Shown piece after piece: positions 869 to 4,757 of a stretch of 4,757 bases of DNA. A model generated the notes under the pieces. The model saw only the letters and a program-made list of their open reading frames with translations. It ran no database searches and was not told the DNA's origin. Source of the DNA: a virus (lineage: Duplodnaviria > Heunggongvirae > Uroviricota > Caudoviricetes); IMG/VR virus record IMGVR_UViG_2529292985_000017, positions 1-4,757 of that record; one strand, 5' to 3'. A program made the translations under genes and the position numbers. Positions within the stretch are counted from its first letter, which is position 1. Every line of letters starts with the position of its first letter.

Positions 869-900
869 CCCCGTCAATACGGTTCTTGCTGCACGCTTAC
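869..900. repeat. IS66-family right terminal inverted repeat (copy A)
   Basis: Reverse complement of 869-900 matches the first ~30 nt at 4433-4464 at about 22 of 30 positions by hand alignment, including the shared GTAAGCGT start. The inner boundary is approximate. Confidence 0.6.
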
Positions 901-1086
901 AGATTAGCCCCCGTTCTGTTGTCAGGTTTTACCTCTCAACGTGCGGGGGTTTTCTCTTTCCAGCAACCAATGCCACCAGGGATAAAGCCCCCGCAACATT
1001 GCGCCTCACCGGATAATTCCGGCTTGGTGTGGATACTACGACTCAATTCATCTTCACTTCATCCCTGAAATGTTTGCAATGAAGAG

Positions 1087-2154
<1,068 letters not shown>

Positions 2155-2159
2155 ACGCT

Positions 2160-2633
2160 ATGGGTACGGTGACGTTTGACTGTCGGATGTTTGTCAGTCT
2201 GTACCCGGAGTTTTCCACGGTGACACCGGAGCTACTGACGGCGGTGTTTAACCGGGCGACCGCGTTGTACCTGGATAACACGGACGACAGTCCGGTTACC
2301 GACCTGAAGGAGCGGGAACAGCTTCTGTTCCTGCTGGTTGCGCATCTGTGCGCATTGCGGGGGCTGGGAAACGGGAGAGACGGGCAGGCTGGTCTGGTGG
2401 GGCGTATCACCAGTGCGTCGGAAGGTTCTGTATCGGTATCGGTATCGGTATCGGTATCGGTGGATAATAGCGGCAGTAATGATGCGTCGTGGTGGTATCT
2501 CCAGACCCCCTGGGGTGCTGACTACTGGCAGGCGACAGCGCCATACCGCTCAATGCAGTATCATTCCGGGGGGGCACCTTCGCGATATCCGGGGCATTAT
2601 TACCGGGGATACGGGAGGGGGCGTCGATGGTAA
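2160..2633 (+). CDS. DUF4054-like phage head-tail connector/neck protein
   Basis: 157 codons, with AGGAG about 10 nt upstream of the ATG. The N-terminal half ([21 protein letters not shown]...[12 protein letters not shown]) and the GSVSVS...WYLQTPWG region fit my recollection of the DUF4054 family. The stop overlaps the next start (ATGGTAA). Contains the (SV)n repeat. Confidence 0.7.
2430..2461. repeat. Perfect hexanucleotide tandem repeat (GTATCG)x5 plus partial unit, in-frame within the CDS 2160..2633
   Basis: Direct reading: gtatcg at 2430, 2436, 2442, 2448 and 2454, then gtg. It encodes [10 protein letters not shown] in the annotated frame; the overlapping frames read (YR)n and, on the reverse strand, (IP)n. 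Confidence 0.95.
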
Positions 2634-3211
2634 ATAAAGTCACAGGTGGCAAACAGTTCCGGCAGAAGCTGAAACAGGTTGCCGCGAACCTTTCATTGGG
2701 TAAAAAACTCAAAGTGGGTTTTCTTGAGGGAGCAACTTACCCTGACGGTACGTCAGTGGCTTATATTGCCGCAGTTCAGGAGTTTGGTGGAAGAGCGGTC
2801 ATACCCGCCCGTGAGCAGACGCTCCACTTTCGCTATAACGAAAAAACGGGAGAAACCGGGCACCGCTTTGTCAAAGCCGGTAAAGGGAATTTTGTTCAGG
2901 ATGTGGTTATTCCTGAGCACACGGTCACCATTCCCCCCCGTCCGTTCTTCCGTAAGATGATCGAACATAAAAGTCCCGAATGGGGCGAAAAAATGGCGAC
3001 CTTATTACGGGCGAATGATTTTGATACTGCGACCGCTCTGGTGTGTATGGGAGAACATATCAAAGGGCAGTTGCAGATGTCTGTTCGCGACTGGGAAAGT
3101 CCGTCCAACGCTGCATCCACTGCCCGGCAAAAGGGTTTTAACAACCCGCTTATTGAAACCGGACATATGATGGACAGCGTTGATTATTCTGTAGACGGGG
3201 GCAAAAAATGA
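2627..3211 (+). CDS. HK97 gp10-like phage head-tail joining / virion morphogenesis protein
   Basis: 194 codons; GGAGGG about 7 nt upstream. The motifs [10 protein letters not shown] and IPPRPFF resemble the conserved EfGT and RPF(L) motifs I associate with the HK97 gp10 family. Start overlaps the upstream stop and the stop overlaps the next start (ATGA at 3208-3211). Confidence 0.7.
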
Positions 3212-3573
3212 ACTTTCACGGTATTGTTTCCGGCGCAGTACGTCGGGTAAATCCCTTTACAGACGCGCTGGTTTATCGTTCCCGCGGGAGTACACAGCAG
3301 GCAGATTATTCCCGCGTACCTGAGTATGAAGATCCGGTTTCCGTCAGGGGGCAAAAGCAGGCTGTCACCCAGGCTGATTTACGTCATCTTGATAATCTTA
3401 ACCAGCAGGGAGTTTTCGCCACATTGTATACCGATGGTAACTGGTGCGGGCTTAACCGTGCCCGGCAACAGGGAGGCGATAAATTTGTTATTGGCGATGA
3501 AACGTGGCTGGTGATTGAGGTACTGGAAATCTGGCCTGACTGGACGAGGGTTATTGTATGCCTTCAGGTGTGA
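3208..3573 (+). CDS. Phage neck/head-tail module protein, unknown function
   Basis: 121 codons, translationally coupled to neighbours on both sides (ATGA overlap upstream, 16-nt overlap downstream). Position in the neck-gene run supports coding. I recognise no family. Confidence 0.7.
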   Translation: MNFHGIVSGAVRRVNPFTDALVYRSRGSTQQADYSRVPEYEDPVSVRGQKQAVTQADLRHLDNLNQQGVFATLYTDGNWCGLNRARQQGGDKFVIGDETWLVIEVLEIWPDWTRVIVCLQV

Positions 3574-4103
3574 CCCTCTCCGTTACGGAAAGCGCTCTTT
3601 ATCAGGCCCTCGGTGATTATCACCGGGGGCTTTTTTCTGATGCCGGGATTGAACGAACGCAGCAGAACCAGGTCCCGATGCCTCAGGGGAATTTCATCAC
3701 CATGACGGGCATTGATGTTACCGGATTATCCACTGCGGTAGTGGCATATTCTGCGCCAGCGCAGGCTGGTGAGGGCTCTCAGCATATCACCCGTACCACA
3801 AAATGGCGTTGCCAGCTTGATTTCTACGGCCCTCACGCGGCAGATAACGCTCAGGTGCTGGCAACGCTTTTCCGGTCTGAATTTTCCGTACGGCTTTTCC
3901 GGCAGGGCGGTGGGCTGATTTCCCCGCTGTATTGCTCAGAGCCCTTTAACACCACATTCCCCAACGGTCAGCAACAGTATGAACCGCGCTGGACGCTTGA
4001 TATTCAGATGCAGATTAACCCTGTGGTCACAACTTCCCTGATGTTTTTTGACAACGTGATCACCCGGACAACGGAGGCTGATAATGCCAATTCCACTCAG
4101 TAA
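3558..4103 (+). CDS. Phage neck protein, possibly tail-completion/terminator-like, unknown family
   Basis: 181 codons; GAGGG about 7 nt upstream. It sits immediately before the sheath-like gene, the usual position of a tail terminator or completion protein. The functional label is positional inference only. Confidence 0.65.
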   Translation: MPSGVTLSVTESALYQALGDYHRGLFSDAGIERTQQNQVPMPQGNFITMTGIDVTGLSTAVVAYSAPAQAGEGSQHITRTTKWRCQLDFYGPHAADNAQVLATLFRSEFSVRLFRQGGGLISPLYCSEPFNTTFPNGQQQYEPRWTLDIQMQINPVVTTSLMFFDNVITRTTEADNANSTQ

Positions 4104-4449
4104 AGATGTACAGATAAATCCCGGTGTGCTGGCTGTGGCGGGTAATGCCGTCGATCTTAACGGCCTGCTGTTGACCAGTAATCCGTTACTTCCGGTCGGC
4201 ACTGTGGTTCCGTTTTCCTCTCCGGATGATGTGGCCGCGTATTTTGGTGCATTATCCGATGAGTACGCACGCGCTCAGCTTTATTTCCAGGGCTTCAAAA
4301 ATGCCACCAGGACGCCGGGGCAATTGTTGTTTTCCCGTTTCAGTCCTGCCCCATCGGCGGCCTGGTTACGTAGCGGTTCGTTTAAGGGCGCGACTGTTGA
4401 ACAGCTACAAAAACTTTCCGGCACGCTGATGCGTAAGCGTACAGCCTGA
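4084..4449 (+). pseudogene. DUF3383-type phage structural (tail-sheath-like) protein, N-terminal ~116 aa only; interrupted by IS66-family insertion at 4432/4433
   Basis: GGAGG 6 nt upstream of ATG 4084. The N-terminus (...VVPFSSPDDVAAYFGALSDEYARAQLYFQGF...PGQLLFSRF) fits my recollection of the DUF3383 N-terminal region; full-length members are several hundred residues. The last codons and the TGA stop (4447-4449) lie inside the IS66 left inverted repeat. Confidence 0.7.
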
Positions 4450-4464
4450 ACCGTCTGGTCAGAA
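4433..4464. repeat. IS66-family left terminal inverted repeat (copy B)
   Basis: Imperfect inverted match to 869-900 (see copy A). The inner boundary is approximate. Confidence 0.6.
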
Positions 4465-4524
4465 TCTGACGAATTAGACAAAGTGGTGTCCACCAAATAA
4501 GTAGTGGGAACCAAAGTGTCAGAT

Positions 4525-4757
4525 ATGCAGAAAAATGTGAATCCCGGCAGGCGAAAAGGCTGCCCTAATTATCCTCCCGAATTTAAACAGCAGCTCGTTG
4601 CTGCCTCCTGTGAACCCGGGATATCCATCTCAAAACTTGCTCTTGAAAATGGCATTAACGCCAATCTGTTGTTCAAATGGCGACAACAATGGCGCGAGGG
4701 AAAGCTGCTATTACCTTCTTCAGAGAGCCCCCAGCTACTTCCTGTGACTCTCGATGC
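4525..4757 (+). CDS. tnpA: IS66-family accessory protein TnpA (orf1), N-terminal 77 aa; 3' end outside window
   Basis: Translation MQKNVNPGRRKGCPNYPPEFKQQLVAASCEPGISISKLALENGINANLLFKWRQQWREGKLL... is the helix-turn-helix N-terminal protein typical of IS66 orf1. In-frame TAA at 4498-4500; alternative starts GTG 4504 and GTG 4516; ATG 4525 chosen. The frame is open to the window end. Confidence 0.85.
   Translation, partial: MQKNVNPGRRKGCPNYPPEFKQQLVAASCEPGISISKLALENGINANLLFKWRQQWREGKLLLPSSESPQLLPVTLD

Follow-up and report, generated by a model that had tools for sequence, protein, structure and literature searches.

The window, as the whole stretch of 4,757 nucleotides under analysis is called here, is contig AERM01000079.1 of assembly GCA_000193895.2, which is that of Shigella dysenteriae CDC 74-1112 (PMC6397287). 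The 3′ part of a transposase gene of the ISEc8/IS66 family, together with the end of the element, occupies positions 1 to 900 on the plus strand, as judged from the Pfam domain DDE_Tnp_IS66 and from BLAST matches to ISEc8 copies. The orfB end of an IS911 element (IS3 family) lies at 1087 to 1808 on the minus strand and adjoins the phage DNA; it was recognized by Pfam rve domains and by matches in which IS911 is named, and the identical junction is present in other S. dysenteriae genomes. Between the 3′ end of ISEc8 and IS911 lies a 186-nt chromosomal LDR fragment (901 to 1086) of the ldr/rdl type I toxin–antitoxin kind, a repeat present in about four copies in every E. coli genome, in which the rdlD antitoxin RNA was detected (890 to 955, plus strand; Rfam RF01813, 73.2 bits, E 1.5e-14). 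A weak 11-nt tandem of 1.9 copies, TCAATTCATCT, was also noted at 1043 to 1063 in the LDR/IS911 junction region (Tandem Repeats Finder score 35), probably by chance.

The phage genes follow, all on the plus strand. A 112-aa ORF (1816 to 2154), defined by the ORF list, the annotation of intact copies and a BLAST boundary at 1809, precedes the gene for a head-to-tail adaptor of 157 aa (2160 to 2633), the ORF of which is intact. Downstream are a neck-region ORF of 194 aa without family match (2627 to 3211; ORF list and Pfam), the position of which is conserved in intact prophages, a gene for an E217 gp28-like collar protein of 121 aa (3208 to 3573; Pfam PF22755, E 2.7e-6, 28 bits against a cut-off of 27), and a neck/tail terminator gene coding for 181 aa (3558 to 4103; Pfam PF23961, E 2.2e-29). 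The last is the 5′ part of a tail sheath gene (4084 to 4432; N-terminus of DUF3383 / E217 gp31, Pfam PF11863), which is cut by ISEc8 at 4432/4433. The left end of this second IS66-family element, lying inside the sheath gene, fills positions 4433 to 4757 on the plus strand, as supported by BLAST and by matches in the phage collection that are annotated as ISEc8.

Homology to intact E. coli prophages was confined by BLAST to positions 1809 to 4432. In the intact relatives, the genes are arranged in the order of portal, MuF, scaffold-like, cement, capsid, a 115-aa ORF, adaptor, 194-aa ORF, collar, terminator and sheath, so that the adaptor gene is located within a head–neck–tail module, between the capsid gene and those for collar, terminator and sheath. 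The window retains this module from the 112-aa ORF to the 5′ end of the sheath gene, and the ORFs of the remnant are still intact, but the terminase, portal, scaffold, cement and capsid genes of the intact copies are gone. The boundary with IS911 falls within the start codon of the gene that precedes the adaptor, two bases in, and this junction removed the original start of the 112-aa ORF, which codes for 115 aa in intact prophages (L002, 3648 to 3995). In complete S. dysenteriae genomes that carry two repeat units at the locus (see below), the remainder of the sheath gene follows ISEc8, and IS1 interrupts the tube gene. The loss of head genes to IS911, the split of the sheath gene by ISEc8 and the interruption of the tube gene by IS1 together make this a defective prophage, which is unable to make particles; the decaying prophage suspected in the original prediction, made from the DNA letters alone, is thus borne out. 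When the phage part was compared with the phage collection by megablast, only the ISEc8 end was matched, and the protein-level search of the same collection gave no isolated phage above 48% identity. The prophage thus is without a close cultured relative in the collection searched. The same prophage also occurs in enteroinvasive or O121 E. coli (L001, RMDEC364; L003, O121 201805972; L029) with IS66, IS1, IS3-family and other IS at different positions, such as the collar and sheath genes, and all three of these IS-hit copies keep two repeat units.

The adaptor product matched Pfam PF13262 (DUF4054, now labelled E217_gp27) over profile positions 3 to 104 of 105, with an E value of 4.6e-15 and 56.1 bits against a cut-off of 23.9. 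The closest solved relative is gp27 of Pseudomonas phage E217 (PDB 8fvh, 8fvh_N; E 3.6e-9), and the counterpart from phage Pa193 (9b41) was also matched. The mean pLDDT of the AlphaFold model was only 71, with a confident helical core. Foldseek with the model of the two-unit allele gave 8fvh_G as the top match (E 5.1e-4, probability 1.00, TM 0.55), and, after it, neck proteins from phages FCWL1 and XM1. The adaptor, E217 gp27 and Pa193 gp28 therefore belong to the same family as judged by Pfam, by sequence match to the PDB and by fold, and what had been predicted as a DUF4054-like neck gene can be named a head-to-tail adaptor gene. The gene order of adaptor, collar (gp28-like), terminator and sheath is common to E217 and the prophage. 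The dodecamer of E217 gp27 sits under the portal and resembles P22 gp4, its C-terminal tail being inserted between portal subunits (PMC10329688). The window adaptor is about 27% identical to E217 gp27, and the two can be aligned at a G-x-VSV motif, GSVSVS in the adaptor with GEVSVA in gp27, after which the window copy carries a 6-residue insertion. Unlike E217 gp27, the window adaptor belongs to a prophage that lacks the genes for portal and capsid, and a role as adaptor is impossible here.

The insertion corresponds to a repeat in the DNA. Tandem Repeats Finder identified a perfect GTATCG array at 2430 to 2461 on the plus strand (period 6, 5.3 copies, 100% matches, score 64), the 6-bp copies being arranged head to tail as in a VNTR or simple sequence repeat. 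The letters at 2427 to 2465 are TCT, five copies of GTATCG, GTG and GAT, which are in frame with the adaptor ORF and code for S90, five Val-Ser pairs (residues 91 to 100), V101 and D102; by sequence and alignment, the array itself accounts for residues 91 to 101. The 30-mer of five units gave no match in 200 dinucleotide-preserving shuffles of the window, even at 3 mismatches. Position, unit, copy number and frame all agreed with the original prediction, and so did its argument that a change by whole units keeps the frame, as the ORF of 157 aa stays open because the unit is 6 bp. The hairpin potential of the repeat DNA was unremarkable (z = −0.12 for folding against shuffles), and hairpin-driven instability of the array was ruled out on this basis. 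At least 17 contigs, taken from independent assemblies of NCBI and Logan/SRA, code for the identical 157-aa product, and five units are present also in the complete chromosome CP026840.1 and in the Logan assembly of SRR5024450.

The array falls on a motif, ASEG-SVSVS, that is nearly invariant in an alignment of 44 homologues reaching down to about 45% identity. Residues S96, V97, S98 and V99 (window numbering) are invariant throughout this alignment, and the window is the only sequence in it with an insertion at the motif. The 135 family proteins fetched included 72 with SVSVSV, 56 with SVSVS, 4 with a shorter form (SVSV or SVS), 2 without the motif and a single longer one, P0128, which is a four-unit allele. 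The suggestion that a short SV motif is native to the family thus proved right, the motif being ancestral and its usual form SVSVSV or SVSVS. Such near-invariance marks the motif as a conserved core element and not a linker. The codons used for it differ between lineages. The prophage of E. coli and Shigella codes for the motif by TCT GTA TCG GTA TCG GTG, which contains a perfect 14-nt tandem, (GTATCG)2GT, while the codons elsewhere are mixed, namely GTT TCC GTC TCC in Salmonella, GTT TCC GTA TCC in Serratia and GTA TCA GTG TCA in Enterobacter. A perfect DNA tandem is thus found in only one of the four lineages compared, and it is likely to have served as the seed for slippage.

Unit numbers were counted in 35 loci. 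Every copy examined outside one S. dysenteriae lineage contains two units, including all intact prophages; these copies comprise eight of eight E. coli genomes, five IMG/VR contigs and the intact prophages L028 and L029. The E. coli copies align to the window with a gap of exactly 18 bp, equivalent to three units, and the long E. coli matches each fall 19 nt short of the query, of which 18 nt are repeat and 1 nt belongs to a G-run. A flank-anchored scan of viral contigs gave two-unit copies only, and variable-gap scans anchored in the same way gave no copy in metagenome contigs or in GTDB genomes, the latter being one genome per species with Shigella not represented. Alleles were also built on the protein background of the window (R32, A133 and C-terminal RRW) and looked up as exact sequences. 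Two units (P0136, 151 aa) were found on 77 contigs of S. dysenteriae, the longest being 4.80 Mb, three units (P0151, 153 aa) on one contig of 2671 nt, and four units (P0128, 155 aa) on five contigs, so that together with the five-unit allele of the window a series of 2, 3, 4 and 5 units, differing by whole units, exists on an identical protein background, as expected for a VNTR. Judging from this background and from the contig sizes, the three- and four-unit contigs (2671 to 2677 nt) probably represent the same IS-flanked locus. Alleles of 1, 6, 7 and 8 units on the window background were not found in the exact-sequence collection, which is a weak negative given that the collection is without the window's own allele. 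Four other protein backgrounds that are common, P0138 (342 contigs), P0140 (50), P0124 (32) and P0141 (21), served as a control; the absence from this same collection of their 1-, 3-, 4- and 5-unit versions is likewise only suggestive.

Genomes with the prophage remnant, found by its specific sheath–IS fusion ORF and the 112-aa ORF, comprised 10 assemblies with two units and one complete chromosome (CP026840.1) with five. Alignment of the two-unit locus L016 to window positions 1805 to 4757 showed no mismatch and a single 18-nt gap; for L017, L018 and L035, also with two units, alignment to 1087 to 4757 showed 3 mismatches and one 18-nt gap, and spanned both IS junctions. The copy number therefore differs between isolates at what is, by its flanks, one and the same locus. 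The counting of units in related loci, as proposed in the original prediction, thus gave no uniform number but 2, 3, 4 and 5 units on one background, in support of its idea of a typing marker in a decaying prophage that varies by single units between isolates. The word hypermutable, used in the same place, was too strong, as at least 17 contigs share one five-unit allele and 77 share one two-unit allele. The three- and four-unit alleles are rare and the five-unit allele does not vary across many assemblies, so that the rate of mutation may be low, and by these counts the array appears only modestly mutable.

Several other differences were observed around the locus. Close to the 3′ end of the adaptor gene, the length of a G5 homopolymer (2617 to 2621, plus strand) varies between copies, which makes it a second slippage-prone site. 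With G5 the C-terminus reads RGRRW, as in the window, other S. dysenteriae and some S. flexneri and S. boydii, and with G4 it reads RGVDGK, the form of the majority of E. coli copies, among them the intact prophages L028 and L029. The overlap of the adaptor gene with the next gene is 7 nt for G5 and 11 nt for G4, and the change affects the extreme C-terminus, the part inserted into the portal in E217 gp27. The possibility that G5 is a frameshift of decay was ruled out by the same RGRRW ending in Salmonella homologues. In some S. dysenteriae assemblies, adaptor and 194-aa ORF form one fused ORF of 344 aa, or two pieces of 110 and 84 aa stand in place of the 194-aa ORF (L019, L021, L031, L033, with GCA_002968215.1 and GCA_002968235.1; L020, L022 to L025); these forms may be either further frameshifts of decay or homopolymer errors of long reads. 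The left flank varies among five-unit assemblies, with panB-panC-panD in L010 and a holin gene in L022. In the five-unit chromosome CP026840.1 (L022 / L034), ISEc8 is followed by tail-fibre-type genes on the opposite strand in place of the remaining sheath gene, which points to an IS-mediated rearrangement or deletion that sets this lineage apart from the two-unit genomes.

On these grounds, we consider it highly probable that a lineage-specific VNTR of hexanucleotide units, kept in frame, arose here by replication slippage after the death of the prophage, and that it is neutral and without function. A point on the other side is that the remnant still has its ORFs intact. The IS junctions are common to the two-unit and five-unit genomes, and we infer that the IS insertions are older than the expansion. 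As two units are ancestral by outgroups, the same junctions would place the expansion after inactivation of the prophage. The course of events may then have been as follows. The adaptor motif was invariant from ancestral times, and its synonymous codons in the prophage of E. coli and Shigella would have made a perfect two-unit tandem by chance. In one S. dysenteriae lineage the prophage would first have been crippled, with head genes lost at IS911, the sheath gene split by ISEc8 and the tube gene cut by IS1, and this decay would have lifted selection on the adaptor. Slipped-strand mispairing at the two-unit seed could then have added single units, from 2 to 3, 4 and 5, and the five-unit allele, carried by CDC 74-1112, would have spread clonally. 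The only effect on the product would be the addition of six residues, VSVSVS, to a protein for which neither portal nor head is left as a binding partner.

A variant within this reading of slippage in a dead gene is that a single 18-bp duplication in tandem, whether from slippage or from unequal exchange, raised the number from two to five in one step, that the five-unit allele has hardly changed since, and that the alleles of three and four units are later contractions. Such a course agrees with the identity of the five-unit allele on at least 17 contigs, with the rarity of the four- and three-unit alleles (five contigs and one contig, respectively) and with the failure of exact-sequence look-ups to find alleles of 6, 7 or 8 units. 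Against it, all intermediate sizes are present on the same background, and a two-unit seed allows only a register shift of 6 nt, so that the gain of three units at once is less likely than gains of one. A single 18-bp duplication with occasional contractions fits the data about as well as stepwise growth; we nevertheless regard the one-step course as rather unlikely.

It is very improbable that the adaptor has in its (SV)n stretch a tunable linker or a β-extension, the length of which is selected, for instance for neck or portal interactions. In favour of this view, the unit keeps the frame and leaves the ORF intact, and in AlphaFold monomers of both the two-unit and the five-unit allele the helical core is unchanged and the SV segment is of low confidence (pLDDT below 50). 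However, few parts of the family are as strongly conserved as this segment, the window being the only one of 44 aligned sequences with an indel there, and its counterpart is ordered in the E217 neck, where residues 1 to 155 of gp27, including this segment, were built into the cryo-EM map (PMC10329688). Moreover, every intact prophage examined keeps two units, and the remnant has lost portal, capsid and the other head genes, while its sheath and tube genes are broken. The variable-length linker envisaged in the original prediction is, on the same points, not supported. A related idea is that ASEG-SVSVS might tolerate extra V-S pairs and that the remnant neck genes might continue to be expressed and find a use, for instance in a related prophage of the same cell, the repeat length modulating neck assembly. 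This is to be judged a very long shot; if true, the locus would be a natural experiment of length variation in a conserved phage neck interface.

Phase variation, in which repeat changes at a contingency locus would turn expression of the adaptor or of genes downstream on and off, has hardly any probability left: short tandem repeats in coding sequence are a classic substrate for it, but an in-frame 6-bp unit never shifts the frame, the alternative-frame ORFs over the repeat (YRYR and PIPI series) are mechanical, and no sigma-70-like promoter was found at 1700 to 2800 of the window, so that a change of repeat number leads to neither a frame shift nor an altered promoter spacing. Mis-assembly of a low-complexity stretch, which might be feared in a short draft contig bounded by IS, is next to impossible, as an array of 32 nt is easily spanned by one read and five units recur in independent NCBI assemblies, in Logan SRR5024450 and in CP026840.1.

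Neutral slippage in a dead prophage gene would place the array in a familiar class. Bacterial VNTR or MLVA loci with 6-bp coding units serve for typing E. coli O157 and Shigella, and replication slippage is the accepted mechanism for their variation. The window array resembles these loci in its perfect head-to-tail 6-bp units, in differences of single units between isolates with identical flanks, and in changes that stay in frame. It differs from them in being very short (2 to 5 units) and modestly variable, and in having arisen recently, within a dead prophage gene, from a two-unit seed inside the codons of an invariant protein motif. With the contingency loci of Haemophilus, Neisseria and Campylobacter it shares a slippage-prone simple repeat within an ORF, but its unit is a multiple of three, which leaves no on/off switching, and there is no sign of selection for variability. 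A literature search with the repeat string returned only unrelated papers on SARS-CoV-2, plants and IRF, and the locus was not found there as a described marker; it appears to be undescribed, while its kind, the bacterial VNTR, is thoroughly known.

The practical value of the array is small, and it has no bearing on open questions in phage or Shigella biology. At most, it could be used for strain typing, as a cheap PCR-sized marker (2 to 5 units, within an 18-bp range) for sub-lineages of S. dysenteriae that carry this IS-riddled prophage. The locus would otherwise stand as a clean textbook case of the birth of a microsatellite, in which a chance two-unit tandem expands once IS-mediated decay has lifted selection.
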